Below, piece after piece: positions 1-15,712 of a DNA stretch of 26,010 nucleotides. Source of the stretch: Candidatus Micrarchaeales archaeon (GTDB lineage: Archaea > Micrarchaeota > Micrarchaeia > Anstonellales > J096). The stretch is taken from assembly GCA_039793475.1 (NCBI GenBank), contig JBAMLP010000040.1, forward strand, positions 1 through 26,010, given 5' to 3'. The stretch's first letter is position 1. Each line of letters begins with the position of its first letter. The position numbers were made by a program, and so were the translations under genes. Below the pieces are notes generated by a model. The model was given only the letters and a program-made list of their open reading frames with translations, did no database searches and was not told where the DNA came from.

Positions 1-62
1 CGTCTTATAAATACCTTCTACGACCTCCCCTGGGTTTCGAAATTAAGCTCCCCCTAGTCGTA

Positions 63-311
63 TGCGGTTGCCGGGATTTTCAAGCCAAAACCTCCTAAGA
101 CAAACCGCGGAGGGGAAGACAAACCTCATAGGGGGCTCCGCCCCCTCGCGGTTTTTCCTTGATTTCCCCTTCACCCCCAAACCAAAACCACCTAATAACA
201 TAGGGGGGTTGGAGCTAGGGGGAGATGAGAACTACTTCAAGCTCCCCCTGGCTTATTGAACCCGGGCCGCTGGCTTGGGAAGCCAGAATCATACCACTAG
301 ACCACAACCGC
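63..311 (-). tRNA. tRNA-Gly (anticodon CCC), intron-containing; exon 1 = 311..255, exon 2 = 76..63
   Basis: Minus strand reads GCGGTTG-TG-GTCTAGTGGTATGAT-T-CTGGC-TT CCC AA-GCCAG-CGGC-CCGGG-TTCAAT (311..255) and resumes T-CCCGG-CAACCGC-A (76..63). Joined, the exons give a 71-nt cloverleaf: 7-bp acceptor stem, 5-bp anticodon stem (CCC at 279..277), 4-nt variable loop, T-loop TTCAATT. CCA is not encoded. Confidence 0.95.
77..254 (-). other. 178-nt archaeal tRNA intron at non-canonical position 59/60
   Basis: Strict hBHBh' motif. Central helix TTCA (260..257) pairs with TGAA (82..79). 3-nt bulges AT|A and AA|T. Intron helix AGCCA/TGGCT; exon helix is the T-stem CCGGG/CCCGG. Confidence 0.9.
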
Positions 312-332
312 GCTATTACTTAAAATATAGAA

Positions 333-1259
333 TTAAATTTTAAATGTTTGCGGATTCCTTTCCTTCTCGAGCACGCCTATTAATGCTTGAGGTGGGATGA
401 TGCCCTGTTCTGTTATATATGCGTTTATGTATTTCGCCGCAGTAACATCGAATGCAGGGTTTCTTATCTTCAAATTTTTCATTTTTACTTTCCACACTTC
501 AGCAGGGTCTCTTTCTTCTATATGCTCCCTCACTCCATACTGGGTCAATGGGTCGTATTTCAGCGTTTCTGTAGCTGAAAAAAAGCTCTTGTCATGAAAG
601 CGCATGATGTGCGCTAGTGTTGATGTTCCGATTTTGTTCACCAAATCCCCGGTGGCGGTTATTGCATCAGCACCGACGAGCGCAAAATCAGTTTTTTTTG
701 CAAAAAAATTCATCGCGCCATCAACGATGAAAGTAACCTCTATCCCTGCCTTTGCCAGTTCCTCAGCAGTAATCCTTCCCTGATATCTGGGCCTGGTTTC
801 GCACGCAATCACATCTACCTCCTTTCCCATCTTCACCGCTTTTTTTATTATTCCGGTTACGGTCGAGGAGTGGCAGTGCACCATAATCGTTGCTTTGTCC
901 GGGATGTATTTTGCTCCATAATCCTTCAACTTCTCAACATTTTTGTCAATCTCATCCAGCGTTCTTTTACAGTATACAAGCATGCCGCTTTTCAGAAGCT
1001 TCGCATCCTTCCTCCTATTCTCCACAGCATACTTCTGCATTGCCATCATAACATTCCGCAGCATGGGCTCCGTAGGCCTTGCTTTGCTCAGAACTTCTAT
1101 CGTTTTTGAAATTTCTCTCACAAATTCATTCGAACTTCTCTCTTTTGAGTTTTTAATCTCGTATATAACAGAATTAAGCGCTGCTTTTGCAATATTCCTC
1201 GCGCCCTGCACCTTAAGCGCCTTTATATCCGCAATAACCTTTTTTGTTTTCGCCTGCAT
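333..1259 (-). CDS. Ribose-1,5-bisphosphate isomerase (eIF-2B alpha/beta/delta family)
   Basis: Motifs VQGARNIA, ARPTEPMLRN, HCHSSTV (catalytic Cys), ETRPRYQGRITA, GADAI (catalytic Asp), NKIGT and NPAFDVT match archaeal R15P isomerase of the AMP/nucleoside salvage pathway. Confidence 0.88.
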   Translation of the reverse strand: MQAKTKKVIADIKALKVQGARNIAKAALNSVIYEIKNSKERSSNEFVREISKTIEVLSKARPTEPMLRNVMMAMQKYAVENRRKDAKLLKSGMLVYCKRTLDEIDKNVEKLKDYGAKYIPDKATIMVHCHSSTVTGIIKKAVKMGKEVDVIACETRPRYQGRITAEELAKAGIEVTFIVDGAMNFFAKKTDFALVGADAITATGDLVNKIGTSTLAHIMRFHDKSFFSATETLKYDPLTQYGVREHIEERDPAEVWKVKMKNLKIRNPAFDVTAAKYINAYITEQGIIPPQALIGVLEKERNPQTFKI

Positions 1260-1289
1260 GGAATATACTCTTTAAAAAAGAATAAAAAG

Positions 1290-1919
1290 TTATTCTTCTC
1301 CTACTTCGGCTATGACTGCCCCCAGCAAAAGCAATCTCATGTTTTTGTCCCATCCATCGTATTCTGATGCTTCTTTATAAAGCTGGTAGGCTGTTTTCAG
1401 CAGATCCGGATCCTTTGTAATTATGGCCCTTTCGTACAAATAATCAAGTAAAGGAGTTTCATCATCAGCCGCAACTTTTTTGTAATACTCATCAATCGCT
1501 TCTTTAAAGCACCCGCCGTCCCTATAAATGCTTTGCAGCATTTCTATTTTTTCAGCATCATTTGCAATAATATAACTCTCCAAAAATTCGCAAAACATAT
1601 CACAATCCAGACCCCTATCAGGGCGTTTTACGCCCATTTCCACTGCAATAGATAAATATTCTCCGAACTCTTTAAACAGTCTTGCTTTTGGTATGTTGCC
1701 TGCTTTTTCATAGGCGTCCGCGAGGGCATTGATTCCTTCGCTGTCGAGTTTTTTACAATTGAATCTCATTCTATTTAGATCAAGCTTTTTTTCAAGAGCC
1801 ACGAAAAGTTCGTATCCCTGCTTTTTCCTCATCAAGTTTCGTATCATCACACCACTACGATGTTTAGCTATGTTCATCCCCGCATTTTTATTAGTAGAAA
1901 TGTTTAAATATGTTTTCAC
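1290..1919 (-). CDS. Hypothetical protein, probably alpha-helical (209 aa)
   Basis: Long ORF filling the gap between the isomerase and the ligase. One weak TPR-like segment (INALADAYEKAGNIPKA); no recognised family. Confidence 0.6.
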   Translation of the reverse strand: MKTYLNISTNKNAGMNIAKHRSGVMIRNLMRKKQGYELFVALEKKLDLNRMRFNCKKLDSEGINALADAYEKAGNIPKARLFKEFGEYLSIAVEMGVKRPDRGLDCDMFCEFLESYIIANDAEKIEMLQSIYRDGGCFKEAIDEYYKKVAADDETPLLDYLYERAIITKDPDLLKTAYQLYKEASEYDGWDKNMRLLLLGAVIAEVGEE

Positions 1920-1970
1920 ATTTTAAAAAACAGCGAAAAGTTTTAATTGGTTGATTTTTCAAAACCTTTT

Positions 1971-3692
1971 ATGAAGTTTGAGGAGCTGGCGAAGATATTT
2001 GAGGAAATAGAGGCCAGGAGCGGAAGGCTCGAGATGACGGATTTGCTGGCAGAGATGTTCAAAAAAACAACCCCTGAAGAGGCGGAAAAAATCGCCTATC
2101 TATTGCAGGGTCAGCTTGCGCCTCCATACATCGGCTTAAATTTAGGGCTCGGGGAAAGGTTTGCGATAGAGGCGATCTCTCATTCCACCGGATACAACAA
2201 AAATGCAGTGGAGAAAAAATACAAAGAAATTGGGGATTTGGGAAGGGTTGCAGAAGAATTGCTGAAAACAAAAAAACAAACTGCGCTTTTCGCAAAAGAG
2301 CTTCGCGTTGTTTATGTTTATGACACATTTGTTAAGATTGCAAAAGCATCTGGTAGGGGAAGCCAGGAAGCGAAAATAAAAATGTTGGCAGAACTTCTTA
2401 ACAACTCAAAACCCCTTGAGGCAAGGTACATTATAAGAATAGTTCTGGGACGGCTCAGGCTTGGCGTTGGCGACCCGACCATTTTAGATGGACTGAGCGT
2501 TGCGCTTTTCAAAACAAAAGAAAAAAGGGAGGAAATAGAGAGGGCATATAACCTATGCTCGGACTTAGGGTATGTTGTAAGGACTGCGATGGAAGAGTAC
2601 AAAAAAATAGCAAGGTTCAAAATCCAGCCATTCAAACCCCTCATGCCCGCGCTTGCGGAAAGGCTCGCATCTGCAGAAGAAATAATAAAGAAGCTTGGAA
2701 GGTGCGCAGTAGAGCGAAAATACGATGGGTTCAGGATGCAATGTCATAAAAAGGGGGATAAGGTGGAGATATACTCCCGAAGGCTAGATGTCATGACGGA
2801 TATGTTTCCTGATGTTGTTGATGCAACTAAAAAACTAAAAACAAAAGAAATAATTTTCGAGGGCGAGGCGCTCGCTTTCAACAAAAAGAAGAACAGGTTC
2901 TACTCCTTCCAGGAGACGATGCACCGCCGGAGAAAATATGGAATTGATAAGGCGAGCAGGGAGTTTCCTCTTTATGTTTTTGTTTTCGACCTTCTCTATT
3001 TAAACGGCCAGGATTATACAACAAAAACATACAGGGAAAGGAGGAAAGCGCTCAAGAAAATATTTCCCTCAGGAATTCTCAAAATTGCGGAGAGCATAGA
3101 GACGGACAATCCAAAGCAGCTTGAAAATTATTTTCAGGACTCGCTGAAAAAAGGGCTGGAGGGAATTATCGCAAAAGATTTGAGCGCAGTTTACACCGCA
3201 GGAAAAAGAAAGTTCGCATGGATAAAACTGAAGAAGAGCTACGGGAAGGCGGTGGATACGATAGATGCTGTAATAGTTGGCTATTATCTTGGAAAAGGCG
3301 CGAGGGCTGAGTTCAAGTTTGGAGGGCTTCTTGTCGCTGTTCGGAACGAGGATACCGGGAAGCTGGAAACAATTGCAAAAATAGGCTCTGGCTATACAGA
3401 AGAGGAAATGAAAACCCTGAAAGAACTACTCGATGAAGTAAAAACAAAAGAACCGCCAGGGGATCTGGTGTACAGAATAAAACCTGATTTTTGGGTGGAG
3501 CCGAAGTATGTAATAGAGGTTGCATTCGATGAAATTACTGAAAGCCCTCTCCACACAGCGGGCATGCACGGAGAAAAGGGCTATGCGCTGAGATTTCCGA
3601 GGATGGTGAGGATAAGGAACGACAAGGCGCCGGATGAGGCGACGACAACGAGGGAAGCAGAGGAGATGTTTGAACTGCAGAGAAAAAAATGA
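1971..3692 (+). CDS. lig: ATP-dependent DNA ligase (archaeal type)
   Basis: Motif I ERKYDG, EGE, FDLLY, EGIIAK, WIKLK, DAVIVG and RFPR..RIRNDK, plus an N-terminal DNA-binding domain. The ORF track starts at TTG 1947; ATG 1971 (MKFEELA..) resembles typical archaeal ligase N-termini. Confidence 0.97.
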   Translation: MKFEELAKIFEEIEARSGRLEMTDLLAEMFKKTTPEEAEKIAYLLQGQLAPPYIGLNLGLGERFAIEAISHSTGYNKNAVEKKYKEIGDLGRVAEELLKTKKQTALFAKELRVVYVYDTFVKIAKASGRGSQEAKIKMLAELLNNSKPLEARYIIRIVLGRLRLGVGDPTILDGLSVALFKTKEKREEIERAYNLCSDLGYVVRTAMEEYKKIARFKIQPFKPLMPALAERLASAEEIIKKLGRCAVERKYDGFRMQCHKKGDKVEIYSRRLDVMTDMFPDVVDATKKLKTKEIIFEGEALAFNKKKNRFYSFQETMHRRRKYGIDKASREFPLYVFVFDLLYLNGQDYTTKTYRERRKALKKIFPSGILKIAESIETDNPKQLENYFQDSLKKGLEGIIAKDLSAVYTAGKRKFAWIKLKKSYGKAVDTIDAVIVGYYLGKGARAEFKFGGLLVAVRNEDTGKLETIAKIGSGYTEEEMKTLKELLDEVKTKEPPGDLVYRIKPDFWVEPKYVIEVAFDEITESPLHTAGMHGEKGYALRFPRMVRIRNDKAPDEATTTREAEEMFELQRKK

Positions 3693-4064
3693 CTAAACTA
3701 CTTTCAGCCCCTTTATCCCCTCATACTCATTCCTGTTTTTTGTGAGAAGAAATGCATCATTCCTAATGCAGATTGCTGCGTTTATTATCGCCCGCGTAGA
3801 GGTCCTAACCCCTTCTTTCATTCCTTCATGGTAGAATTTTGACGCAAGCTCCGCGCTCTGGCTGTCGAAACCAAGAATCTCTAGGTTCTTCATAAACCTA
3901 AGCACCGGAGCAATTGATTTCACACTCGAGAGAACCTCGAACATCACAACACTCGTGGTCACAATCTCTTCCTTTTCAATGTAGTATCTAAGCTTTTCTA
4001 TTGTCGCCCTCCTTCCCTCAAGAAAGTCTATTATTATGTCTGAGTCAAGGCAGATTTTCACCAT
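3693..4064 (-). CDS. vapC: PIN-domain VapC toxin
   Basis: LDSDIIID, TTSVVMFEV and LLTKN PIN motifs. ATG 4064 overlaps the antitoxin stop (TGATG) with RBS GAGGTGG upstream; the track start is 4073. Confidence 0.88.
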   Translation of the reverse strand: MVKICLDSDIIIDFLEGRRATIEKLRYYIEKEEIVTTSVVMFEVLSSVKSIAPVLRFMKNLEILGFDSQSAELASKFYHEGMKEGVRTSTRAIINAAICIRNDAFLLTKNRNEYEGIKGLKVV

Positions 4065-4276
4065 CACATCCACCTCTTCAGTGTAATCAGCTGCTTCTCA
4101 TCAACATCCCTAGGCCCGAGAATGCCAGCGAACTCCATTATGCTTGAGTCTGTTCTCTTCTCCTGCATGATGGAAACAAGGTATTCTATCGCCTCGGAAA
4201 AACTCATCCCCTTTGATTTTTTCAGCTTGTCCAGCTTCTCGTAAACATCATCCCTAATAGTAATTACACGCACCAT
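4064..4276 (-). CDS. vapB: VapB-type antitoxin (DUF217-like)
   Basis: ITIRDDVYEKLDKLKKSKGMSFSEAIEYL pattern; small gene directly upstream of and coupled to the PIN gene. Confidence 0.8.
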   Translation of the reverse strand: MVRVITIRDDVYEKLDKLKKSKGMSFSEAIEYLVSIMQEKRTDSSIMEFAGILGPRDVDEKQLITLKRWM

Positions 4277-4288
4277 TCTGACCGCCTC

Positions 4289-4319
4289 ATAAATACATTC
4301 AATAAATACATTTAAATGT
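4289..4319 (-). promoter_or_regulatory. vapBC promoter with putative operator repeats
   Basis: ATAAATACATT occurs twice (4289-4299, 4302-4312). Perfect palindrome ACATTTAAATGT (4308-4319) contains a TATA-like TTTAAA. RBS GAGGCGG lies at 4288..4282. Confidence 0.55.
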
Positions 4320-4396
4320 TTTTCGTCTGGGATTAGGGGAAGTAGAGTATGTTGGTTGGAAAATGTGCATCTCCCTTACCGTCGGCAAACAGAAGG

Positions 4397-4434
4397 TATA
4401 TAAAACTATTTTTTGCTTTTTCCGTTGAGGTGAC
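4397..4434 (+). promoter_or_regulatory. ftsZ promoter TATA box and RBS
   Basis: TATATAAAA at 4397-4405 and GAGGTGA at 4428-4434, four nt before ATG 4439. Confidence 0.6.
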
Positions 4435-4438
4435 CAGG

Positions 4439-5512
4439 ATGGATAGTTTGATAAAAGACGTATTAAACGCCTCCTCGCAGGCAGGGGCGAAGGAGGAAGA
4501 GGATGTGGGAAACGAGCACATAAAAATCGTAACCTGCGGGGTTGGAGGAGCAGGGAACAACACCATAAACCGGCTTGTGAAAGCGGGCGTGAAAGGCACA
4601 GACCTTGTGGCAGTAAACACAGACCAACAGCACCTGAACATAGTGCATGAGAGGGCAAAGAAGGTGCTCATAGGAAAGAGCATCACAAAGGGCCTTGGTG
4701 CAGGCGGATACCCGGATATTGGTGAAAAGGCCGCAGAAGTGGACAGGCACCTAATCGAGAAGGAGCTCGAGGGCTCGCACCTTGTTTTCATATGCGCTGG
4801 AATGGGTGGAGGAACAGGTGGCGGAGCAGCACCGACAGTTGCAGAAATAGCAAAGGAGCAGGGCGCAATTACCGTTGCCATGGTTACATACCCGTTCGCT
4901 CTGGAAAGGGCGAGAAGGAAGAAGGCAGACGAGAGCATCACGAAGCTGAGAAAGCACTGCGATTCGGTTATAATTTTGGACAACAACAGATTGGTTCAGC
5001 TTGTCCCGAACCTTCCGATGACAGAGGCGTTTGCTGTCGCGGATGAAATTTTGGCGCGTGCGATTTCAGGTCTGGTGTGGACCATCACCCAGCCGTCCCT
5101 CATCAACATAGACTTCGCGGATGTAAGAAGCATAATGAAGGGAGGCGGAGTCGGCTTCATAGCTGTGGGAGAAGGAAAGGGAGCAGACAGGGTGAAGTCC
5201 GCGGCTGAAAGCGTCTTGAAGAACAGGCTGCTGGATGTAAGCTTTGAGGGTTCGAAGGGCGCGCTCATCCACATCTCCGGAGGAAGCGACCTCACTCTCG
5301 GCGACGCCATAAAGGCAGGAGAGATTATTACAGAACAGATGGACGCTGAGGCGAACGTAAAATGGGGTGCCAGGATAATGAACAACTACGAGGGCAAGCT
5401 TGAGATTGTCGCGATAGTCACTGGTGTGAGGGGAGCAAGCATTCTCGGCACATTCCCACAGGAGGAAGCGCTACCAGCACCAGCTTACTCAGGCGACCTT
5501 GACCTCCTCTAA
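4439..5512 (+). CDS. ftsZ: Cell division GTPase FtsZ, copy A (FtsZ2-like)
   Basis: GVGGAGNNTIN, AVNTD, GLGAGG, GMGGGTGGG, DNNRL and T7 loop PSLINIDFADVRSIMKGGG. Start moved to ATG 4439 because of the RBS; the track start is 4349. Confidence 0.96.
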   Translation: MDSLIKDVLNASSQAGAKEEEDVGNEHIKIVTCGVGGAGNNTINRLVKAGVKGTDLVAVNTDQQHLNIVHERAKKVLIGKSITKGLGAGGYPDIGEKAAEVDRHLIEKELEGSHLVFICAGMGGGTGGGAAPTVAEIAKEQGAITVAMVTYPFALERARRKKADESITKLRKHCDSVIILDNNRLVQLVPNLPMTEAFAVADEILARAISGLVWTITQPSLINIDFADVRSIMKGGGVGFIAVGEGKGADRVKSAAESVLKNRLLDVSFEGSKGALIHISGGSDLTLGDAIKAGEIITEQMDAEANVKWGARIMNNYEGKLEIVAIVTGVRGASILGTFPQEEALPAPAYSGDLDLL

Positions 5513-5540
5513 CTTTTTTCTTTTTTATTTTTTGTTTTTT
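5513..5540 (+). terminator. Oligo-T tract, putative archaeal intrinsic terminator between the ftsZ copies
   Basis: CTTTTTTCTTTTTTATTTTTTGTTTTTT immediately follows the ftsZ-A stop codon. Confidence 0.5.
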
Positions 5541-5573
5541 ATTGTCTGGGCAGTTGATGGTTCGGTGGTTGGA

Positions 5574-6584
5574 ATGACTGGAAACAACGCAGATGTTCGG
5601 ATTGCGGTAATCGGAGTTGGCGGTGCTGGAAGCAATGCGGTGAACAGGTTGAAGAAAAACAGAATAGAAAGCGCCCGGACGATTGCTGTAAACACGGACG
5701 CAAGGCATCTTAAGTTCATACATTCTGATGAAAAAATTCTCATAGGAAAAAGCATCACAAAGGGCCTTGGCGCTGGCGGAATGCCAGAGGTTGCAAAGAA
5801 ATGCGCAGAAGCTGACAGAAAACTTTTGAGCGAGAGAATAGGGGAAATGGACATTGTCTTCATTTCCGCAGGAATGGGTGGAGGAACAGGAACCGGCGCG
5901 GCGCCCATCATCGCAGATATTGCAAAGGAGCAGGGCGCAATTACCGTTGCCATGGTCACATACCCGTTTGCTATTGAGAGGTCGAGGATAAAAACAGCGC
6001 GGATGGGAATACAAAAACTCATCAATGTTTGCGACACCGTTGTTGTAATAGACAACAATAGAATGGTGCAGTATGTTCCAAACCTTCCGCTGGATAAAGC
6101 GTTCGAGCTTGCGGATAGCATAGTGGGAAGGGCTGTGAAGGCAATTGCAGATTCCATAGTTCTTCCATCCATGCTCAATATGGATTTTGCGGATTTCAAG
6201 GCAGTGATGGCGAAAAAAGGGCTTTCCATGATAAGCTTGGGCGAAGGAAAGGGAGCAAACAAGATTGAAGAGGCGGTGAAGAACACTCTCGAACACCCCC
6301 TTTTGGAAGTTGATTATGAGGATGCAAACGGAGCGCTGGTGCATGTTGAGGGAAGTCCGAAGCTCACTCTCGCTGAGGCAATAAGGGCAGGGGAGCTGAT
6401 GACAGTTAGTTTCTCGCCTGATTCTGAGGTGAAGCTCGGAGCCCGTGTAAACCCATCCATGAGTGAAGATGCGGTTGTTTTGACCGCGATAATAACAGGA
6501 GTGAAATCCCCACACATAATAGGAATGAGCGAGCCTAAACTGGCTACAACCGAACAGAAGGCCGAAATGTTTGCACTGGCATAG
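5574..6584 (+). CDS. ftsZ: Cell division GTPase FtsZ, copy B (divergent FtsZ2-like)
   Basis: GVGGAGSNAVN, AVNTD, GLGAGG, GGGTGTG and T7 loop PSMLNMDFAD. ATG 5574 is preceded by GGTGG; the track extension from 5499 merely translates the T-tract. Confidence 0.95.
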   Translation: MTGNNADVRIAVIGVGGAGSNAVNRLKKNRIESARTIAVNTDARHLKFIHSDEKILIGKSITKGLGAGGMPEVAKKCAEADRKLLSERIGEMDIVFISAGMGGGTGTGAAPIIADIAKEQGAITVAMVTYPFAIERSRIKTARMGIQKLINVCDTVVVIDNNRMVQYVPNLPLDKAFELADSIVGRAVKAIADSIVLPSMLNMDFADFKAVMAKKGLSMISLGEGKGANKIEEAVKNTLEHPLLEVDYEDANGALVHVEGSPKLTLAEAIRAGELMTVSFSPDSEVKLGARVNPSMSEDAVVLTAIITGVKSPHIIGMSEPKLATTEQKAEMFALA

Positions 6585-6617
6585 CCATTTAAATATTTTT
6601 TTGTTCTCTTTTTCCGT

Positions 6618-9524
6618 ATGTTCTCGTTCAACCCATTCTACCTTGTGCTATGGATATTCCTGGCAAACTTTATCCCTGGCGTGCTGCTCGCTCTCGGGCT
6701 TCTCAAGGAAAAGAAGCTTCTTTTGGTAGAAAAAATAGGGTTTGGTTTTGCGCTTGGGATAGTAATAGCCCCATTCATACTATTCCTGGCGCAACTGGCT
6801 GGGATAGCATATAGTTTCAACCTTGCATTCACCACCACCCTTCTCTTCTACGCACTCTCCATAGCAGTTTTTTATTATAAAAAAGGTTTTGAGGGGTTGG
6901 GCGCAATAGGGAAAGAGGTAGGCGAACACAAATGGGTTTTCTTTGGCATTGTTCTCCTGGTTCTCCTGGCATTTTGGATACGGCTCCAGAGCTACGGGCC
7001 TATTTTTCAGGAGCTGGACCCGTACTACTATGCATATGAGCCATACCTCTATTTAACGAAAGGTTTTGCTCCTCTGAATGATGGGACCGCGTGGTGGCCA
7101 GTTCATGAGGTAAACCACAGGGTGAAACCTGTGCTTGCGTTCATGGAAGCGGAATGGTACTCATTCTATACATGGGGAGGAAGCGCGGACAATTATCTTC
7201 TTTCTGCAGTGTGCAGCATCTATCCGCCGATTGCCGCTGCCCTTGCAGTATTCTTTCTTTACATCTTTCTCTCTTCAGAATACAAAAGGGAGTACGCGCT
7301 CCTCGCCGCCTTCCTCGCCTCCTTCATCCCCGTATTCCTCCTAAAAACAATGGCTGGAGAATTTGAGATCCAGCCATACGCATTCTTCTCACTTTCATTC
7401 TTTTTTGCCTCCTATGCGCTAGCAATAAAAAACAAGGATTTGGTGTTTGCAGCCATCTCTGCCCTCGCGCTGGTTGCAGTATACCTCGGCTCATCTTCAA
7501 TAGTTGTTGCTCTCTCCGCACTCATCCTCTTCATTCCTCTCCACGCCCTCCACCTCTTCATAAAGGGTGAAAAGGATTTCATGCCCGCAATCATAAACTG
7601 GATTGTTCTTGCTGCTCTTGTTTTTGCATCTATCCTGAACTCCACCTATGGAAGCGGAAAATTTGTTTTTAATATTGGCGGCAACTCGAGCTATGCACTT
7701 TTTGGAGTAGTTGCGTTTATGACAGGTTTGCTGTACTTTGAAAAAACATATTCACCTGACAAGTCAAAGATAATAAACTATGCAGGAATTGCGATGGCCA
7801 TCCTTGTTATTGCATTTTTCTTAACCCCATTCGGAGATATTGTAAAAAATATCGCCTCAAACGCCCTCCAAGTTGCTCAGTACACTCTCCCTCTTCACAG
7901 GACAATTCAGGAGCAGGGCCTTGCTGGAAGGGATTTTTATGGCTCCATAGGTTTTATAGGAAAAACATTTTCAGAACAGGATATTCTTTATGGATTTTTC
8001 GCAATCTTCACCTCTCTCATCAATACCCTCTATCATATAGGAGTTGGAATTGCCAACACGATATTCGAATCCTCTCTTGTTTATGAAGATAAGGATGTGA
8101 GCTTCCTGATGTTCTACATATTCCTTGTTGTTGTTACTTCTGCATACGCGCTTTACAGAAAATTTGTAAAAGGGGAGGAAAGTTTGATAGTTCTTTTCCT
8201 TGCGATAGTTTTTCCTGTCTCGCTCGTTGGCATAATAAAAGCAAAGTACACAATATACATGGGCTATTTTCTTGCCATGTGCCTTGCAATAATTCTTGGA
8301 GAATCCGAGCGAATCATCTCTGGTTTTGCAAAGGACGAAAACTCTAAGAAGAGAATTTTCCATGGGCTTTTGGCTTTCGGCCTGTTGGTTGTTTTGTTTG
8401 AAGGATTCTTGGACCCTGTTTCCTATGCAGGGCCTTTGCTCTTCAATTCTTATAAAGTAAGGTTTCAGGACAATCCCCTTGCTCTCCAATCAAAGATGTC
8501 AACCCTTTGCTCCCTTGGCTTGACTGAGGCGTGCTCTGCTTCCCAGGACCCGGTCGCCTATTCAAACAAGGGCATAAACAAGCAGTTTGATTATTCTCTA
8601 TGCGTTTACTCTCTCATTTCAAATCCCCAATCCCCATCCTCTTCAGACCAGCTTGCCGCAAGCGTAAGATGCCAGAGAATTGCTTCCTACTGGATAGATT
8701 CAATGGAATGGCTGCGGTACAACACTCCTGAAGGTTCAAGAGTGATAAGCTGGTGGGACTACGGCCACTGGGAAAACTATTTCGGGCTAAGGAATGCGGT
8801 GATAAGAAATGAGCACACAGACTCTAACATGATTGGCGATGTGGCGCATGATTTCATAATGGACAGCGAGCCCGCTTTGATAGAAACGATGAAAAAATAC
8901 GGTGCGCAGTACGCGCTTTTCGATTCAGAGCTTATTTTTACTGGTGGGCATTTCGGTGGAAAATTCGGAGCCCTCAACTACCTTGCATGCGCCGCAGCGA
9001 ACCTCACGGATGTTTCAAAATGGCCCGGTTCAAGCCTGTGCGAGTTTGAAAACACATGGGAGCAGGTATATGTTTCAAGTCAGGAATGTACAGTTTCTTC
9101 AATAACTGGAAAAAATGGAAGGGTTGCGTATATTATTGATGCCGTTCAAACTTCCTCTGGCCTTCAAACCTCCCTAAAACCCTTCTACTGCCTCTCAACC
9201 ACAAAACTTGCTGATGGAAAAGAGGTCCCGGCTACATACTACTTAGATAGAAAAAACGAGGCAGGAGAGCTTTTGCTTAATAAAGCATTCCTTCTCTATG
9301 ATGGAAAAACATCCGTAGGAGGGTACGATGTTTACACCCTTCTCTACACAAAAGATAAGGTATGGCTTGAAAATGGAACGGTTGTGGACGGATGGAGCGA
9401 CAGGAAAGGAAGGTTCTACGATTCAAATTTATACAAAGGTTTTGTGCTCAAGGAGCTTGATGGGTTTGAGCTTGTGTATACCACGCCCGATGAGGCAGTG
9501 AAAATATATAAAATAAAGGAATAA
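6618..9524 (+). CDS. aglB: Oligosaccharyltransferase AglB (STT3 family)
   Basis: Polytopic N-terminal region with ELDPYY, GEFE and TIQE motifs; soluble C-terminal domain with SWWDYGHW and RYNTPEGSRV. Confidence 0.94.
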   Translation: MFSFNPFYLVLWIFLANFIPGVLLALGLLKEKKLLLVEKIGFGFALGIVIAPFILFLAQLAGIAYSFNLAFTTTLLFYALSIAVFYYKKGFEGLGAIGKEVGEHKWVFFGIVLLVLLAFWIRLQSYGPIFQELDPYYYAYEPYLYLTKGFAPLNDGTAWWPVHEVNHRVKPVLAFMEAEWYSFYTWGGSADNYLLSAVCSIYPPIAAALAVFFLYIFLSSEYKREYALLAAFLASFIPVFLLKTMAGEFEIQPYAFFSLSFFFASYALAIKNKDLVFAAISALALVAVYLGSSSIVVALSALILFIPLHALHLFIKGEKDFMPAIINWIVLAALVFASILNSTYGSGKFVFNIGGNSSYALFGVVAFMTGLLYFEKTYSPDKSKIINYAGIAMAILVIAFFLTPFGDIVKNIASNALQVAQYTLPLHRTIQEQGLAGRDFYGSIGFIGKTFSEQDILYGFFAIFTSLINTLYHIGVGIANTIFESSLVYEDKDVSFLMFYIFLVVVTSAYALYRKFVKGEESLIVLFLAIVFPVSLVGIIKAKYTIYMGYFLAMCLAIILGESERIISGFAKDENSKKRIFHGLLAFGLLVVLFEGFLDPVSYAGPLLFNSYKVRFQDNPLALQSKMSTLCSLGLTEACSASQDPVAYSNKGINKQFDYSLCVYSLISNPQSPSSSDQLAASVRCQRIASYWIDSMEWLRYNTPEGSRVISWWDYGHWENYFGLRNAVIRNEHTDSNMIGDVAHDFIMDSEPALIETMKKYGAQYALFDSELIFTGGHFGGKFGALNYLACAAANLTDVSKWPGSSLCEFENTWEQVYVSSQECTVSSITGKNGRVAYIIDAVQTSSGLQTSLKPFYCLSTTKLADGKEVPATYYLDRKNEAGELLLNKAFLLYDGKTSVGGYDVYTLLYTKDKVWLENGTVVDGWSDRKGRFYDSNLYKGFVLKELDGFELVYTTPDEAVKIYKIKE

Positions 9525-9542
9525 AATTATCCGTAGTACAGA

Positions 9543-11168
9543 TCATCGCTCTGCCTCTTCAGTCGGTGTCGCGGCAGGAGCGCCGGATGTTTCTTCCTCA
9601 ACTTTAGTAAACTCATCTTTCACAGCCAAAACTTCCACTTTGAATTCTCCGCTCGCTTCATTGTATTCGCTTATCCTTCCTTTTATAACTTTCCCGGCAG
9701 GTACGAGTACTGTTCCATCCTCACGGGTAAGTTGCTCCCATGTTTTGAATTCAAACACCTGCCCGCTCGCCGCTAAATAAGGGAACAAAACTTTCTTTGT
9801 ATTCGCCCAGGAAAATACACCAACATTTTTCCTGGTTAGTGTTTTGGTCTCCCAGTTTTCCTTTCCTGCAATTTTTTTGGCTGTTTCCTTATCCGTTTCC
9901 CAAGTACGATCTATCTCACTTAGGTTTCTTTTTACCATCTTCTCTGCACTCAGCCATCCAGCATCAGTCTCAACATAGAAGTTTTCCATTAGTTCAGTTA
10001 CTCCTTTTTCCGGTTTTAAATCCTTTTCAATTTCCCTTGTAAGCGTTAAAACCTGCCCAACAGCTTCCTTTTCTTCCCCTCGTCTCTCTTCTTCCTCTCG
10101 TGCTCCGCCACCCTCTCCTGTTCCCGGAAGCTCTCCCTTTTCCTCTTTAGGTGCAAGCCCAAGCAATCCGTAAATTCCATTTTTTGTGTCAATTCCAAAA
10201 AAACCATCAGGAGTTACTCCAGCAGCCCTCTGCATTCTCTCAACAGCCGCTCTTGTGTCATCACCATATTTCCCATCTACCTTTATCTTCGGACCGCGCA
10301 CGACTCCTTTTTCAACGAGCGTGTTGTAAAGATGCTGAAGGATTGCAACCTGCTCACCATACCACAATCCGCTTGCCCCTCCTATCCAGTTTTTTCCTTT
10401 GTACACCCCCGAAAGCCCATAGTCAAGCGTAATCAAATCCAAAAGCTCCCTTGGTCCCATAGCCATTATTTCTGGGCTCAGTTCAATGTCCGGCAGTTTC
10501 ACGGATGGCTTTGGTGTTGGTTTTGCCCGTATAGGTACCTCCTCCTTTTTCTCAACCATTTCCGGCGCGATTCCGGGTGCTGGGATTGGTTCTCCTATAT
10601 ATTCTTTGAGTTTTTCTGGTTCCTTTTTTCCAATGCGTAATTCCTTAATATACCCTTTCTCAACATCACTTTTGTACAAAATGTACCTAAGCACCGGCCC
10701 CTTCATTGTTTTTCTTATTTCTACTCTTGAAGACCATCCACCCAAATATTTTGCCAACTTTTTATTCGCCCAATCATAAAAACCAATAGGGTCAAGCTCA
10801 GTAAGATTTGCTAATGCTACAGCGTATATCGATGGTGGCATCGCCGATTGCATACGGTGGAGTCTTGCTTTCCAAAAATTTCTCCATTCCTCAGTAACAG
10901 GGGCTTCAATCATGACCGCATCATCCCTGACCTTTACGACTTTTCCATGAAAATCATACCTACCCAACAGACGACCTCCCAGATCACTAGCAACCGTGAC
11001 CTCATCTCCTATTTTTAATTTATTATACTTTTCCATAATAACTTCTTTTTCTTCTTTTTTCTCTTCTTTTTTCTGTTGTTTTTGTTGTTCTGCTTTAGGG
11101 GGCTCAATGTATACTTTCGTTTTATCCGCAGGCATAGGTTCCACAAATGGTTGCTTTTGTTTTGCCAT
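9543..11168 (-). CDS. Multi-domain protein with a central peptidoglycan-binding (PG_binding_1-like) domain
   Basis: VAILQHLY..KVDGKYGDDTRAAVERMQRAAGVTPDGFFGIDT is a textbook PGBD pattern, flanked by Pro/Glu/Lys-rich linkers. The N-terminal region has a possible SH3/KOW-like barrel (LKIGDEVTV..GKVVKV). No signal peptide. Confidence 0.8.
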   Translation of the reverse strand: MAKQKQPFVEPMPADKTKVYIEPPKAEQQKQQKKEEKKEEKEVIMEKYNKLKIGDEVTVASDLGGRLLGRYDFHGKVVKVRDDAVMIEAPVTEEWRNFWKARLHRMQSAMPPSIYAVALANLTELDPIGFYDWANKKLAKYLGGWSSRVEIRKTMKGPVLRYILYKSDVEKGYIKELRIGKKEPEKLKEYIGEPIPAPGIAPEMVEKKEEVPIRAKPTPKPSVKLPDIELSPEIMAMGPRELLDLITLDYGLSGVYKGKNWIGGASGLWYGEQVAILQHLYNTLVEKGVVRGPKIKVDGKYGDDTRAAVERMQRAAGVTPDGFFGIDTKNGIYGLLGLAPKEEKGELPGTGEGGGAREEEERRGEEKEAVGQVLTLTREIEKDLKPEKGVTELMENFYVETDAGWLSAEKMVKRNLSEIDRTWETDKETAKKIAGKENWETKTLTRKNVGVFSWANTKKVLFPYLAASGQVFEFKTWEQLTREDGTVLVPAGKVIKGRISEYNEASGEFKVEVLAVKDEFTKVEEETSGAPAATPTEEAER

Positions 11169-11172
11169 ACCA

Positions 11173-11208
11173 TCACCGTTAGTTATTCTGTTATAAACTC
11201 TTTATAAA
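11173..11208 (-). promoter_or_regulatory. TATA box and RBS for the PGBD gene
   Basis: TTTATAAA at 11208..11201, a second TTTATAA at 11197..11191, and GGTGA at 11177..11173 upstream of ATG 11168. Confidence 0.5.
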
Positions 11209-11234
11209 TATATCCCCGGGTCGTTGATGTTTAA

Positions 11235-12254
11235 TCAAACCGGTTTCTGATAGTACGACCTTTCTGCATACCTTTTATATTCAGATGAAAGATGAATGTA
11301 AACACCCGCGCCATCCTTTATTTTATCGATTATCTCTGTTGCACTTTTTCTGGGAAGAGCAGGACATCCGTGGCTTCTTCCTATTGGTTGCTCGTTCTGC
11401 GCCATTTCTTCTGAAACATAGTCTGCTCCATGTATTACTATATTCCTTTCCCTTGCGTTGCTGTTGTACCCTATCTCCAGACCATCGAGCCGTAAAGAGT
11501 AGCCATTTTTGCCAGTGTATGTTTCTGCCGTAACAAACAGCCCTATCGAACTCTTGTGCGAACCAATATTGTTTGAAACACTTGTAACATTTGCTAAACC
11601 AGAACCTTTTCCATGGGCGACAAGTTCTGTCCTTTCGAGTTTTCCGGTTTTCATGTTAAAAAGAAAAAACCTTTTTTCATAGGAAGGTTTGGAATAATCT
11701 ATGATCACGAAGTAATCTGTGTTTTTTATTTTTCCCGCGTTCACACCGTTTCTGTATGCTATCATTCCGGCGCTGAATGCCTCATAGCTCAACCCCTCTC
11801 TCTCCGCGCCGCTCGAAACCCACATTTCTCCCAGCTCCATTTCTGTTTTCTTTGGTTTCTCTTGAAGAATTGAAGGTTCGAATTTTTTAGGAGGTTCAAA
11901 TTTTTGAGCTGCGATTGGTGTGGGCATTTTCTCTATTCTCAGAAGCTCAATGACCCCTCTCTTTGTTTCAATCCCAAAAACACCATCAATCTTTATTCTC
12001 ATCTTGGTTTTTTCATTTACAGCACTTTGAATTGCCCTGACTGCCTTTTCTGTTTTTTCATCATAAACGCTGGTCAGTTCTATTTTTTCGCCTTCAACGA
12101 GCCCTCTTTCAACAAGGTAATTGTATATCATTTTAACAATGAGTACGTCCTTTCCTTCCTGCACCCCTCTTTTTCCCCCAACCCACCTATCTTTACTAAC
12201 ATCCAATTCGCCTACAAGTCCCTCTGCGGAAAAAGGCAATTTTACAGCTGGCAT
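11235..12254 (-). CDS. Peptidoglycan-binding domain fused to a YkuD_2 (murein L,D-transpeptidase catalytic) domain
   Basis: C-terminal IIDYSKPSYEKRF, VAHGKGSG, SSIGLFVTAETYTGKNGYSLRLDGLE, NSNARERNIVIHGADYV and GRSHGCPA follow the YkuD_2 family pattern with catalytic His and Cys intact. N-terminal PGBD (DGVFGIETK). ATG 12254 preferred over TTG 12272. Confidence 0.9.
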   Translation of the reverse strand: MPAVKLPFSAEGLVGELDVSKDRWVGGKRGVQEGKDVLIVKMIYNYLVERGLVEGEKIELTSVYDEKTEKAVRAIQSAVNEKTKMRIKIDGVFGIETKRGVIELLRIEKMPTPIAAQKFEPPKKFEPSILQEKPKKTEMELGEMWVSSGAEREGLSYEAFSAGMIAYRNGVNAGKIKNTDYFVIIDYSKPSYEKRFFLFNMKTGKLERTELVAHGKGSGLANVTSVSNNIGSHKSSIGLFVTAETYTGKNGYSLRLDGLEIGYNSNARERNIVIHGADYVSEEMAQNEQPIGRSHGCPALPRKSATEIIDKIKDGAGVYIHLSSEYKRYAERSYYQKPV

Positions 12255-12284
12255 GAGTAGTTTATGATGCAAAAAGAATAAAAA

Positions 12285-13298
12285 CTAAACTTTCATCGCC
12301 CTTACTTTTACTCCCGCAGCTTTCAACAATTCAAGCGCATCATCTGCGAGAGGGTACTGCTCATTATACACAACCTCAACAATTCCAGCATTTATTATCA
12401 TTCTCGAGCAATACAGGCATGGAGAATGGGTTGTGTAAATTACTCCGCCCTTTACGCTTACTCCATGGTATGCTGCCTGCACAATGGCATTCTCTTCTGC
12501 ATGCGCGCAAAAACACGATTCCAGATTCTTCCCGCTTTCGCTGAATGAATTGCATCTGGGGCATCCTCCCTCATAGCAGTTTTTCACCCCTCTTGGCGTT
12601 CCGTTATACCCGGTTGAAATGACCCTCTTGTCCTTCACAATAACCGCGCCTATTTTTCTTTTTATGCAGTTTGCGCGGGAAGAAACGACCTTCGCGATAT
12701 TCATAAAATACTCATCCCACACAGGCCTTTCAAATTTAAATTTCACAAGAACTTTCTGCAAAATTCCGTCCACGCTCTCCTGCAACCTTTCCAAAGTGGA
12801 ATCATTCAAAATCGTAAAATCAGCCATTTTTGCGGTTTTTTTCAACTGCTGTTTATACCCCTCCTTACTTTCTTCCTCCATCTTCTCCAATTTCAGAAAC
12901 TCCTCAAAAGTTTGCGGGTCCTCCTCCCTCCCTCTCGCCTTTATCCTTTCAAACCTCACCTCAGCTGGTGCGTTTATGTAAAGCAGATAAAAATTCTGGA
13001 GTTTTTTCAGCTCCTCAACTTCGCCAGGATTTCTTATAGAATCCACAACATAATTTTTCCCCCTTTCCATTTTTTTTATGGCCATGCTGGCAAGCGTTCC
13101 CTCCCCAAATTTTTTTCTCATTTCATTCCCTTTTTTTATCAGATTTTCCCTTGTGAGCGGCTTTCCTTCCTTTACCACCTCTTCTCTTATCACATCTGAA
13201 AGGGAGAGGTAGTAAAAACCTTTTTTCTTCAGATACTCCGCAACAGTTGTTTTTCCGGCGCAGTTTTCGCCCGTTAGCCCAAGGAATATGTTTGACAT
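12285..13298 (-). CDS. P-loop nucleoside monophosphate kinase-like domain fused to dCMP deaminase
   Basis: N-terminal GLTGENCAGKTT (Walker A), DSIRNPGE and R-F-E-R lid. C-terminal WDEYFM, GYNGTP, HAEENA and PCLYC zinc motifs of dCMP deaminase (ComEB-like). Confidence 0.9.
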   Translation of the reverse strand: MSNIFLGLTGENCAGKTTVAEYLKKKGFYYLSLSDVIREEVVKEGKPLTRENLIKKGNEMRKKFGEGTLASMAIKKMERGKNYVVDSIRNPGEVEELKKLQNFYLLYINAPAEVRFERIKARGREEDPQTFEEFLKLEKMEEESKEGYKQQLKKTAKMADFTILNDSTLERLQESVDGILQKVLVKFKFERPVWDEYFMNIAKVVSSRANCIKRKIGAVIVKDKRVISTGYNGTPRGVKNCYEGGCPRCNSFSESGKNLESCFCAHAEENAIVQAAYHGVSVKGGVIYTTHSPCLYCSRMIINAGIVEVVYNEQYPLADDALELLKAAGVKVRAMKV

Positions 13299-13362
13299 GT
13301 TTTTAGTTTGCGGTATGGAAGGTTTTTAATAATATTGTATTAAACTCTCAAAGGGTGAGCGT

Positions 13363-13752
13363 ATGATAGTAGGGAACAGAGTGAATTCCATAGAAGCAAA
13401 GAGAGGAGAAAGCGAGATAAAGAGATTGGATATAAGGATAGGGTTTAGGGATGTGCGGGAGAGTAAAAACAGCAAGGAGATCCTGGAGATAGATTATGAG
13501 TATGTTGCTGCCTACGGAGAAGACGCCGGGGAAATAAAGATCGGCGGAACGATATTCACGAAGGAGGACGAAAAAACAAAAAAAGCAATCCTTGATGAAT
13601 GGAAAAAAAACAAAAAACTACCGGATGATTACATGGAGGCAGCATTGAATAATGTAAATTTTATGGGCGCCGCGAACGGAACTATAATTGCAAAGGTGCT
13701 TAACACTACGCCGCCCCTACTACCACCAAGGTTGAGGATGCAGAAATCATAG
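13363..13752 (+). CDS. Uncharacterised archaeal protein, possibly SecB-like fold
   Basis: RBS GGGTGAG before the ATG. Beta-strand-rich N-terminal half followed by helices and a C-terminal PPLLPP segment reminiscent of SecB PPL. The CDS is solid; the fold call is tentative. Confidence 0.65.
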   Translation: MIVGNRVNSIEAKRGESEIKRLDIRIGFRDVRESKNSKEILEIDYEYVAAYGEDAGEIKIGGTIFTKEDEKTKKAILDEWKKNKKLPDDYMEAALNNVNFMGAANGTIIAKVLNTTPPLLPPRLRMQKS

Positions 13753-14808
13753 TAGGGCTGCTTTATTTTTTAACAAAAGATAGAGTGCAAGGTATTCTGG
13801 CACTTCGACAACCGCGCCCCTTTCAGCTTTTATTCCCTCCCCTATTTTCACATCAACATTTTCATTCACTCTAATCTTTACCCTCTCCTCTCCAAACGCA
13901 ATCGCGTCCTCTATTTCCATTTCGTAATTTTTTGTTGGAAGAACAACAAGCCCTGTTGAGCCATGGAGGGAGCCAGGCAGGCGTATTAATTTAGATGTAT
14001 CCTGCGTCACTCCAACATCCACATTTATGCTTTTTACAGGAAGCTCTTTTGCAACATCTTCCAGCCTCTCAACAACCTTTGGTAGCCTTGTTTTACTCCA
14101 TATGCCCTGTTTTATCCCCTCAACAAAACGCTTCTTTTCCTTATCTTCATTAAAAATTCTGCTTATTTTTTCCGGTTCTGTTTCAAGTGTTTTTATAACC
14201 ATTCTCGCAAACTTTCCCCTATACCCGCCTTCGCTCGGTTTAGGCCCAAATATTTTTTTGCTCTTTTTATCCACATCAAAAAATTTTGTATAGTCCAAAC
14301 CGATTCCGGCAAGATAGGAAGCAATCTCCCTTCTGCTTTCCCTTCCCAGCATTCTGAACTTTTCATAAACATGGACATGAAATCCCCTGTTCCCAGAAAA
14401 AACAAAAGCAATCTTGTTCCTGTCTACGCCGAACTCCGGGATCAAAAATTCCTCTACCAGCCTAACTGCATCCTCCCTAACTTTTTCAAAAATTTCCTTG
14501 TCGAAAATCTCCATCTCGGCGTCGAGGTCGAACACAAGGTCGCTTCCCTTCCATCCCTTATTGTTCATCGGCTGGGCACCTGGCCTTTCGTAGTATGCTG
14601 TTGAGCGGGAAACATAAAGTGGGGCATTTTCCCTCAGAAATTCATTCAGTTTTTCAGAGTTTTCAAAAGCAAGATGCCTCGCTTCTATCTTTCTGTCCCA
14701 ATCGCCGTACCCAAACTCCCTTTCCTCAACTGCATCCGGTTTGAGCTCATGCCTAGCATAGTAGCTCCTGAACCTACTCTTTATCCAACTCTTTTCCCTT
14801 TCGTCCAT
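13747..14808 (-). CDS. priS: DNA primase small (catalytic) subunit
   Basis: REFG, SDLVFDLDA (DxD), FSGNRGFHVHV and VTQDTSKLIRLPGSLHG motifs of archaeo-eukaryotic primase. Confidence 0.95.
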   Translation of the reverse strand: MDEREKSWIKSRFRSYYARHELKPDAVEEREFGYGDWDRKIEARHLAFENSEKLNEFLRENAPLYVSRSTAYYERPGAQPMNNKGWKGSDLVFDLDAEMEIFDKEIFEKVREDAVRLVEEFLIPEFGVDRNKIAFVFSGNRGFHVHVYEKFRMLGRESRREIASYLAGIGLDYTKFFDVDKKSKKIFGPKPSEGGYRGKFARMVIKTLETEPEKISRIFNEDKEKKRFVEGIKQGIWSKTRLPKVVERLEDVAKELPVKSINVDVGVTQDTSKLIRLPGSLHGSTGLVVLPTKNYEMEIEDAIAFGEERVKIRVNENVDVKIGEGIKAERGAVVEVPEYLALYLLLKNKAALL

Positions 14809-15712
14809 ACCCCTTCCCCCAGCTCAGAGGGTTTTTTATCCCGCATTCAGCAACGCAAAGCCCGTATGCCCTCATTGTTTCGCAGGATGGCATGATGTAC
14901 CCGCGCTTTTTCGCATGCTCAATGTAATATCTTGTTTTTTTCTCATTGAAATCCGGAAGGTTTGAAAAGAGGGAGAGTATTGCTTCTGTGTCAACCCGTC
15001 TGTTCACAAAATAAACAGCCAAACTCCACCTCGCATGATGGCCGAGGTTTTCGTGTTTGTACACCTGGTCAAGGAGGGCCTTTACGCACGGTGGGTGCTC
15101 TCCCTTTATGGCTGTTGTTGTTTTCCTGTCTATTTTTGGCAGGAATTCCCTCAGCTGCTCTCCAGCTTTTTTTATCCTCTCATCCTCCACCCTTCCTCTC
15201 GGAAGCTTTTCAAGATGCTTTTTCACTCCCTCCTCCACTATCCTTAAGAATTCCCTTTCCTTTATCTTTACAAACCCGCTATCCATCTCCCTGTTCACAA
15301 GAGAGTACGCCACATCATCAGGAGCAAATTCAAGATAAACTGCAATTGGCAGAAAAGTTTCCCCATTTTTTTCAACCCGTTCTATTCCAAGCTCTCGTCC
15401 TATTCTTTCTGCCTCCTCCTTACTCATTTTTTCATAAGTGCTTTTCGCCCATACAATCGCGTACTTGTTCGTGAGATAGGGGTTATTTATGCTCGCGAGA
15501 ATCATCCTGCTGGTTGCATATATGAGAATCTCTTCGAATTTCTCCCATGCGCTTGTGGCAGTTCCCGCCATTATCCTGCCATTTCTAAGCGCATGCTTCA
15601 ACCTTTCCAAAGCCTTCTCTATTATTTCATCGCTTATTTCCGGCTTTCTCTCATCCATTATTTTTTTTGCGTCATTGCTGAACGGGAATTTCGCAGCAAA
15701 CTCAAGATCCAT
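14774..15712 (-). CDS. priL: DNA primase large subunit
   Basis: AKFPF N-terminus, HPPCV, LGHHARW..AVY, FNEKKTRYYIEH and PSC..GLC..EC..NPL (four Fe-S Cys). Overlaps priS by 35 nt. Confidence 0.93.
   Translation of the reverse strand: MDLEFAAKFPFSNDAKKIMDERKPEISDEIIEKALERLKHALRNGRIMAGTATSAWEKFEEILIYATSRMILASINNPYLTNKYAIVWAKSTYEKMSKEEAERIGRELGIERVEKNGETFLPIAVYLEFAPDDVAYSLVNREMDSGFVKIKEREFLRIVEEGVKKHLEKLPRGRVEDERIKKAGEQLREFLPKIDRKTTTAIKGEHPPCVKALLDQVYKHENLGHHARWSLAVYFVNRRVDTEAILSLFSNLPDFNEKKTRYYIEHAKKRGYIMPSCETMRAYGLCVAECGIKNPLSWGKGYGRKGKELDKE

Follow-up and report, generated by a model that had tools for sequence, protein, structure and literature searches.

A predicted 178-nt bulge-helix-bulge intron in the T-loop of an Anstonellales tRNA-Gly(CCC) gene, composed of repeat modules shared with its flanks

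At one end of contig JBAMLP010000040.1 from a Candidatus Micrarchaeota metagenome-assembled genome (GCA_039793475.1), a tRNA-Gly(CCC) gene breaks off within its T-loop and its last 14 nt lie 178 nt further on. Is this a working gene with a long intron at an unusual site, or the remains of one? The window (the whole 26,010-nt stretch analysed) had been given a first-pass annotation made from its letters alone, which proposed an intron of the bulge-helix-bulge (BHB) type between tRNA positions 59 and 60. Comparison with related genomes makes it very probable that positions 311–63 of the minus strand are a working tRNA-Gly(CCC) gene carrying such an intron, and the BHB intron is read as real and most likely functional. 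The gene has the following parts.

336–343, minus strand: TATA-box-like sequence TTTAAAAT, at −25 to −32 from tRNA position 1, read by eye from the sequence
311–255, minus strand, 57 nt: exon 1 (tRNA positions 1–59), recognised by a partial Rfam tRNA match and by identity to intron-less orthologues; acceptor 5′ strand, D arm, anticodon arm (CCC), T-stem 5′ strand and T-loop bases TTCAAT
254–77, minus strand, 178 nt: predicted BHB intron between tRNA positions 59 and 60
76–63, minus strand, 14 nt: exon 2 (tRNA positions 60–73), TCCCGGCAACCGCA, recognised by orthologue identity; T60, T-stem 3′ strand, acceptor 3′ strand and discriminator A

The precursor (311–63) is 249 nt long, the anticodon loop reads UUCCCAA, and CCA is not encoded after exon 2. 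The TATA-like TTTAAAAT lies inside the 3′ end of the adjoining IF-2B-family gene and, judged by its sequence and position, is probably the tRNA-Gly promoter. In all of the relatives fetched, the orthologous tRNA-Gly(CCC) lies just downstream of the IF-2B-family gene, and the gene is uninterrupted in the following, given with their IF-2B protein identity to the window.

L006 and L007: IF-2B identity 80%
L129: IF-2B identity 80%
L131 to L134: IF-2B identity 77–78%
L135: IF-2B identity 76%

When the two exons were joined in silico, the resulting 71-mer was recognised by ARAGORN as tRNA-Gly(ccc), with a normal cloverleaf and the T-loop TTCAATT. It is identical at 71 of 71 positions to the uninterrupted orthologues of L006, L007 and L134, and differs by 1–3 bases from those of L129, L131, L133 and L135. 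The predicted exon junction, GGTTCAAT^TCCCGG (here and below, ^ marks a join or cut), is the exact sequence found in the intron-less orthologues. This agreement between the junction predicted from the BHB motif and the one present in uninterrupted genes is the strongest single piece of evidence, both for the intron nature of the insert and for the placement of the cuts. The identity of the gene, the 59/60 position with coordinates exact to the base, and the regeneration of a TTCAATT T-loop by the predicted cuts had all been put forward in the first-pass annotation, and all three hold.

The motif that would direct splicing is made up as follows.

265–261 with 75–71, minus strand: outer helix h, which is the T stem (CCGGG/CCCGG)
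260–257, minus strand: 5′ strand of the central helix H, TTCA (tRNA positions 54–57), pairing with 82–79
82–79, minus strand: 3′ strand of H, TGAA (intron nt 173–176)
256–254, minus strand: 5′ bulge AT^A (A58 T59 ^ A), predicted cut at 255/254, in agreement with the orthologue junction
78–76, minus strand: 3′ bulge AA^T60, predicted cut at 77/76
253–246, minus strand: 5′ strand of the inner helix h′, AGCCA(GGG), AGCCAGGG; also the 5′ end of the U module described below
90–83, minus strand: 3′ strand of h′, (TTT)TGGCT, TTTTGGCT

This is a strict hBHBh′ arrangement, with 3-nt bulges on opposite strands, a 4-bp helix between them and both splice sites inside the bulges; the perfect motif proposed at first pass is borne out. 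A scan of the 249-nt precursor returned it as the sole hBHBh′ in which both flanking helices reach at least 5 bp, and it occupies the single pair of positions that restores the tRNA. A motif of this quality appeared anywhere in about 10% of shuffled sequences, a figure that does not count in the placement requirement. In a plain thermodynamic ensemble the acceptor stem, T stem and h′ are all strongly represented, with base-pair probabilities of 0.75–0.88 for the five Watson–Crick pairs of h′, and the intron folds moderately better than its shuffles (z = −2.4). Three properties expected of a BHB tRNA intron, namely the motif, the restored cloverleaf and compensatory changes in the helices (given below), were found.

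ARAGORN detected no tRNA in the whole window, and no Rfam match was obtained there at the gathering score. A relaxed Rfam search gave only a partial tRNA match at 304–247, scoring 23.2 bits against a threshold of 29. The earlier suspicion that standard finders could miss this gene was well founded, and routine finders, being blind to such genes, would report these DPANN genomes as lacking tRNA-Gly(CCC).

What the intron is made of became apparent when it was compared with DNA flanking the gene in relatives. On these alignments it is a mosaic of short G5/C5 hairpin modules, called U and V, and not foreign coding DNA.

254–183, minus strand: U module (intron nt 1–72), with the hairpin AGCCAGGGGGAG...CTCCCCCTAGCT (inverted repeat I3)
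175–99, minus strand, 77 nt: V module, antisense, 98% identical over 41 nt to the flank of L007
98–81, minus strand: second copy of an 18-nt direct repeat (D3, 89% identity), the first copy being at 195–178; the two copies bracket the V insert
60–42, minus strand: CGACTAGGGGGAGCTTAAT, with which another hairpin module begins, two bases past the tRNA 3′ end (repeat D4)

The U module is homologous to DNA lying directly 3′ of the intact tRNA in L006, L007, L135 and a more distant lineage, species C. Intron nt 1–70 show 86% identity over 70 nt to L006 3976–4044, which directly follows the tRNA (CGCA^T^AAGCCAGGGGG...), and the equivalent site of L135 is 74% identical to U over 47 nt. The ends of U are complementary (AGCCA...TGGC), so the module brings the inner BHB helix along with it. 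The V module holds a 19-nt tandem duplication (repeat D2), and its 77-nt stretch is also the start of another contig, L137, where it is followed by the upstream region of an open reading frame (ORF190) and not by exon 2. The CGACTAGGGGGAGCTTAAT sequence is identical at 19 of 19 positions to the reverse complement of a flank module of L006, and the species C intron begins with sequence that is 87% identical over 61 nt to a different part of the L006 flank. At the 3′ end of a shorter intron, that of L148, the U module recurs in reverse (77% over 65 nt). The modules thus occur in both orientations, and carry hairpins. Small cassettes come and go in the interval after the tRNA among relatives.

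In the L006 species, hairpin modules also lie at each of the two breakpoints of an approximately 18-kb inversion. This inversion separates the window's species from L006/L007 (window 1–18096 compared with L006 3001–6900 and L140 1–5723), one breakpoint being just 3′ of the tRNA and the other in the intergenic interval 18033–18096. Apart from the tRNA-Gly locus and the inversion breakpoint, no modules were found in about 178 kb of Anstonellales DNA, which is partly redundant between assemblies. A dispersed, genome-wide repeat seems less likely on the DNA covered, as neither the 26-kb window nor the other examined loci contained additional copies. A MITE-like or palindrome-associated repeat element would be expected to have many copies dispersed in a genome, with defined ends (terminal inverted repeats or subterminal hairpins, and a target-site rule); the modules, with their hairpins and two orientations, were met in these loci only at the tRNA gene and the inversion breakpoint.

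Other identities for the insert were considered and set aside. A box C/D small RNA is not indicated, as the 178 nt contain neither UGAUGA nor CUGA and gave no Rfam small nucleolar RNA or small RNA match at E ≤ 10; nor did the intron match any known RNA family in Rfam. A group I intron is excluded by the absence of an Rfam match (window 1–500 at E ≤ 10, whole window at E ≤ 0.5) and by the shortness of the sequence. An integrative element using the tRNA as an attachment (att) site would not fit a single-copy exon 2 with no integrase nearby, and no integrase or transposase domains were found in the large ORFs of the window or in the two ORFs following the tRNA in L001, a second assembly of the window's species. 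Viral origin was likewise rejected: the 14-nt U motif had only chance matches in viral contigs and three longer, specific patterns had none. By blastn, the L006 flank modules gave no match to phage records, and the intron with its 3′ flank gave none to plasmids. A twintron was considered for the 97-nt V insert and dropped, the only candidate being a weak BHB-like match (3 + 3 bp) that overlaps the main motif. A split, trans-spliced gene does not apply to the window or to L002, an independent assembly, since both exons lie on one contig, 178 or 170 nt apart. The U module directly after the tRNA in L006 and L135 had prompted a model in which exon 2 was moved downstream by a 15-nt deletion; this was dropped because species C and L148 have older homologous 59/60 introns and because a module also follows exon 2 in the window.

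Several introns were found in the same gene of relatives. Two lineages carry an intron in the D-loop.

L128 1361–1477: IF-2B identity 87%, the closest other lineage; D-loop intron only, 46 nt
L143 2940–3040 and L144 1471–1571 (species C): IF-2B identity 72%; D-loop intron of 45 nt at 15/16 in two samples

In L128 the D-loop BHB has H = GTCT/AGAC and h′ = GCCTTG/CAAGGC, and the spliced product is identical to that of the window at 71 of 71 positions. Across the two lineages, the D-loop (15/16) introns of 45–46 nt have a BHB without an outer helix, with H = GTCT paired with AGAC or AGGC, and h′ = GCCTT(G)/(C)AAGGC.

Species C has both a D-loop and a T-loop intron in tRNA-Gly(CCC). After ...GGGTTCGAA, L143 and L144 continue as G5/C5 module sequence to the contig end, while L146 begins within module sequence and reads ...CCGCGGTTTGTCTTGCGGAAA^TCCCGGCAACCGCA^T^AAGCCAGGGGG...; the 59/60 intron of species C, about 149 nt long, was pieced together from L143/L144, L145 (the middle) and L146. 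L145 itself is a broken allele (1983–2160): it has lost the middle exon, leaving the D-loop intron joined directly to T-loop intron modules, and only TCCCGGCAAAGG remains of its decayed exon 2. In L148 (GCA_038891555.1) the intron at 59/60 measures 138 nt and reads TTCAAA^ACC...GGAAA^TCCCGG; the spliced form of this gene is recognised as tRNA-Gly by ARAGORN. The sequences from three further samples (L149–L151) begin within that intron. The DNA flanking the L148 gene is 97.7–98.9% identical to that of the intron-less L129, so the 59/60 intron can be present or absent between near-identical genomes. In a single-protein neighbour-joining tree, species C is basal and the intron states are scattered, which fits either an old intron with repeated loss or recombinational spread of intron alleles; a tree of this kind, built on one protein, cannot choose between ancient gain with losses and lateral spread.

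Within the window's own species, the L002 assembly (GCA_049700095.1) carries this gene with an intron of 170 nt, the exons and BHB halves being unchanged. The two sequences differ by 16 substitutions over 11.3 kb, and seven of these, together with an 8-nt indel, are concentrated within 36 nt of the intron interior (window 168–203).

Compensatory change in the BHB helices was assessed in an alignment of only three sequences, one of them a composite: 92.9% of BHB cells pair across the three lineages, compared with 21–62% when partners are slid. In five BHB pairs both partners differ, one of these pairs being in the central helix (A57-U to G57-C in species C); within h′, such double changes between lineages affect four of the five aligned pairs. 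Going by these aligned sequences, the covariation is supportive rather than conclusive.

Several observations weigh against a functional intron in a fixed gene. The register of the covariation alignment was set by hand from the splice sites and leans towards the structure, and the intron of species C was put together from different contigs and samples. The 4-bp central helix reaches a probability of only about 5–6% in the plain thermodynamic model, since lengthening h′ by 2 bp is a competing option, and the U hairpin is also able to compete with h′; the low value is put down to the limits of such a model where the enzyme stabilises a bulged motif, and is kept as a caveat. The L145 allele shows that a broken version can persist, so the gene may be dispensable. 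L001 (GCA_049971235.1) follows the window exactly along exon 1 and the first 160 nt of the intron, up to ...CGCGGTTTGTC, and from a join at 11161/11162 runs into AGAAAGAATT..., the region upstream of ORF190 (itself followed by the lysyl-tRNA synthetase gene, LysRS), without exon 2, which was not found in the 10 kb beyond the join either. The second D3 copy starts one base after this point of divergence. Two continuations after window position 99, GGTTTGTC^TTAGGAGG...exon 2 and GGTTTGTC^AGAAAGAATT...ORF190, coexist in at least three assemblies, which means that the exon-2 continuation represents either a repeat copy or an allele that coexists with another.

Three ORF190-bearing contigs from other assemblies (L137, L138 and L139) start exactly 77, 55 and 23 nt before the join GGTTTGTC^AGAAAGAATT, these leading nucleotides being entirely common to the intron. 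Overlaps of 77 and 55 are common de Bruijn k-mer sizes, pointing to a branch in the assembly graph. It is possible that the V part occurs twice in the genome, in the intron and before ORF190, with L001 representing a collapse or a deletion of the loop between them; it is also possible that two alleles coexist, one without exon 2. Contigs of the window type stop 62–78 nt after exon 2. In that short stretch (window 1–62; L002 11190–11267) a TATA-like TATTTATAAG is enclosed by the arms of an 11-bp inverted repeat, GGGGAGGTCGT...ACGACCTCCCC; L002 extends barely beyond this repeat and the window ends within it.

Could the locus then be a disrupted relic, in which flank modules inserted into the T-loop have killed tRNA-Gly(CCC), the BHB-like fold is unused, and tRNA-Gly(UCC) or another CCC copy decodes GGG? 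Alleles lacking an exon do exist in sister strains (L001, L145), and the intron is built from the same repeats as the non-coding flank. The relic scenario raised in the first-pass annotation is thus a serious one, but the allele in the window has both exons intact. They are identical at all 71 positions to functional-looking orthologues, although the surrounding intergenic DNA is unalignable between species. A strict hBHBh′ falls at exactly the right bases, its helices co-vary across three lineages, and strain variation spares the exons and BHB ends, all of which make a relic unlikely.

A related idea places the 3′ exon on a variable or looped segment bounded by V copies, so that the gene would be cis-spliced in some cells and reduced to exon 1 in others, the L001-type gene being either broken or completed in trans as a split tRNA. 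The contig starts within sequence common to the intron, the two continuations (L001 taking the one that lacks exon 2), the early ends of window-type contigs and the turnover of small cassettes in relatives all speak for it. Set against these are the contiguity of exon 1, intron and exon 2 in both the window and L002, and the failure to see exon 2 at a locus apart, under a promoter of its own; a repeat present twice but collapsed in L001 accounts equally well for the pattern, and a variable 3′ exon seems quite improbable. A trans-spliced state for the L001 allele is only a possibility. That the gene is an assembly artefact, a truncated tRNA falsely joined to a fragment with a tRNA 3′ end, has to be considered given that all sequences are metagenome assemblies and that contigs break at this repeat-rich locus. 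The same join occurs in the independent L002 with a different intron variant, however, analogous intron-bearing genes were assembled in other species and samples (L148–L151, L143/L144, L146), and a chimera would not give a perfect BHB with covariation, so an artefact is hardly credible.

With a working, intron-bearing gene as the preferred reading, the following course of events is envisaged. The gene would be transcribed as a precursor of about 249 nt, probably from the TATA-like TTTAAAAT. The T stem, T-loop positions 54–57 paired with the intron TGAA, and the paired intron ends would form the strict hBHBh′, and the archaeal splicing endonuclease EndA would cut both 3-nt bulges, at 255/254 and 77/76. 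An RtcB-type ligase would then join the exons into a 71-nt tRNA with the T-loop UUCAAUU (predicted RNA junction GGUUCAAU^UCCCGG), and circularise the 178-nt intron (predicted junction ...CUUGAAAA^AAGCCAGG...); CCA would be added after ligation. Neither EndA nor RtcB was present among the annotated ORFs of the 26-kb window and the locus fragments. As to origin, the intron may have arisen by capture and continual reshuffling of local hairpin repeats at 59/60, a site where a few bases complementary to the conserved T-loop would suffice for splicing, with U and V modules recombining, inverting and duplicating at the tRNA-Gly locus in this clade. The first event could have been an insertion, a duplication or a rearrangement.

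The neighbourhood of the gene is as follows. The host belongs to Micrarchaeota, Micrarchaeia, Anstonellales, labels that are carried by the genome with the exact IF-2B protein and by close relatives. The IF-2B-family isomerase gene adjoining the tRNA lies at 333–1259 on the minus strand, and the order IF-2B, tRNA, ORF190, LysRS is conserved in relatives. ORF190 (L001 11349–11921; homologues P0121–P0125) is a constant neighbour of the unstable tRNA locus and has no Pfam match; one homologue is named 'Holliday junction resolvase-like predicted endonuclease' by JGI. An opposite-strand 5S rRNA-like sequence, recognised by eye only, follows the tRNA in L131 (4990–5165) and L134 (1190–1360). A gene combining a winged helix-turn-helix with an MNT-like nucleotidyltransferase (L145 2242–2920, L146 223–1078, L148 3001–3525) sits at differing points of the tRNA–LysRS interval in different strains, and is followed in species C (L145, L146) by a 132-aa ORF; this nucleotidyltransferase family is widespread among DPANN metagenome proteins. 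Elsewhere in the window, a YkuD_2 L,D-transpeptidase and a PG_binding_1 protein are encoded beside two tandem FtsZ paralogues (9543–12272, minus strand; 4349–6584, plus strand), peptidoglycan-type domains being unexpected for a DPANN archaeon. Positions 17917–24904 (plus strand) hold six consecutive, mostly overlapping ORFs of 431, 307, 572, 340, 362 and 318 aa without Pfam match, the first two of which are kept beside the tRNA locus in L006.

The BHB intron class, the 59/60 site and a phylum with such introns are known already. In ARMAN-2 (Candidatus Micrarchaeum acidiphilum), pre-tRNA-Pro(GGG) has introns at 53/54 and 59/60 with strict hBHBh′ motifs, pre-tRNA-Cys(GCA) has a 59/60 intron with an hBH motif, and a broad-specificity epsilon2 splicing endonuclease is documented for Micrarchaeota (Fujishima et al. 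2011, PMC3239211). The window shares with ARMAN-2 the phylum, the insertion point and a BHB built on the T stem, as the first-pass annotation had anticipated in noting T-loop introns in ultrasmall archaea, and by analogy a broad-specificity splicing endonuclease would be expected in its host. It differs in that its intron lies in tRNA-Gly(CCC) of an Anstonellales member, is 178 nt long, and is composed of hairpin modules shared with the flank. In Thermoproteales, transposition has been proposed for non-canonical tRNA introns (Fujishima et al. 2010, as summarised in PMC4033280). In terms of that summary, the likenesses are a non-canonical BHB, a seemingly recent gain and related sequences at several places, suggesting mobility; similar introns are spread there across different tRNA genes of one genome, whereas the copies seen here all belong to one locus, lying either in the T-loop or immediately 3′ of the gene itself. 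The phylum differs too, and introns of the window's clade are several times longer than those of the summary. The euryarchaeal tRNA-Trp(CCA) intron, which sits at 37/38 and carries a box C/D small RNA (cited in PMC4090602), is, as described in that citation, likewise unusually long with internal structure and is released and circularised after BHB cleavage, as predicted for the window intron. The latter, in contrast, has no C box, D box or Rfam match, and no embedded function is evident. In Desulfurococcales, tRNA loci are places of frequent genome rearrangement where some genes have been split recently (Chan, Cozen and Lowe 2011, PMC3218864), and here too related genomes have intact, interrupted and broken versions of one tRNA gene, although in the window the exons are in cis, 178 nt apart, and no mobile-element genes are adjacent.

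A 2014 review gives a range of 11–129 nt for archaeal tRNA introns (PMC4090602), which the 178-nt intron exceeds, consistent with the earlier remark that its length is at or beyond the upper end. All four T-loop introns of the clade (178, 170, about 149 and 138 nt) lie above that range, and limited literature searches found no later report of longer archaeal tRNA introns. Length need not be an obstacle to cleavage. Archaeal rRNA BHB introns are hundreds of nt long, are circularised after excision and often bear ORFs, so EndA is not length-limited; the window intron, unlike these, lies in a tRNA T-loop and has no ORF. What is distinctive is the length, the composition from flank-shared modules, the recent presence/absence and exon-loss polymorphisms, and the branch at the 3′ exon.

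One orthologous gene is thus found in at least six states among very close relatives: intron-less, with a T-loop intron of 178/170, about 149 or 138 nt, with a D-loop intron, with both, and exon-deleted. For the gain of non-canonical archaeal tRNA introns, transposition and mobile-element integration have been proposed without a mechanism. Since the intron DNA can be traced to repeats of its own flank and the splice signals covary, gain, loss and the step from intron to split gene become directly testable in this clade. Tentatively, the G5/C5 modules may be a recombinogenic, effectively mobile family tied to Anstonellales tRNA-Gly(CCC), which repeatedly creates, remodels and destroys 59/60 BHB introns. 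If this were true, the clade would record, as a natural time series, how tRNA introns are gained and lost and how the genes break up, including presence or absence of an intron at about 98% genome identity and alleles heading towards a split gene or a relic.

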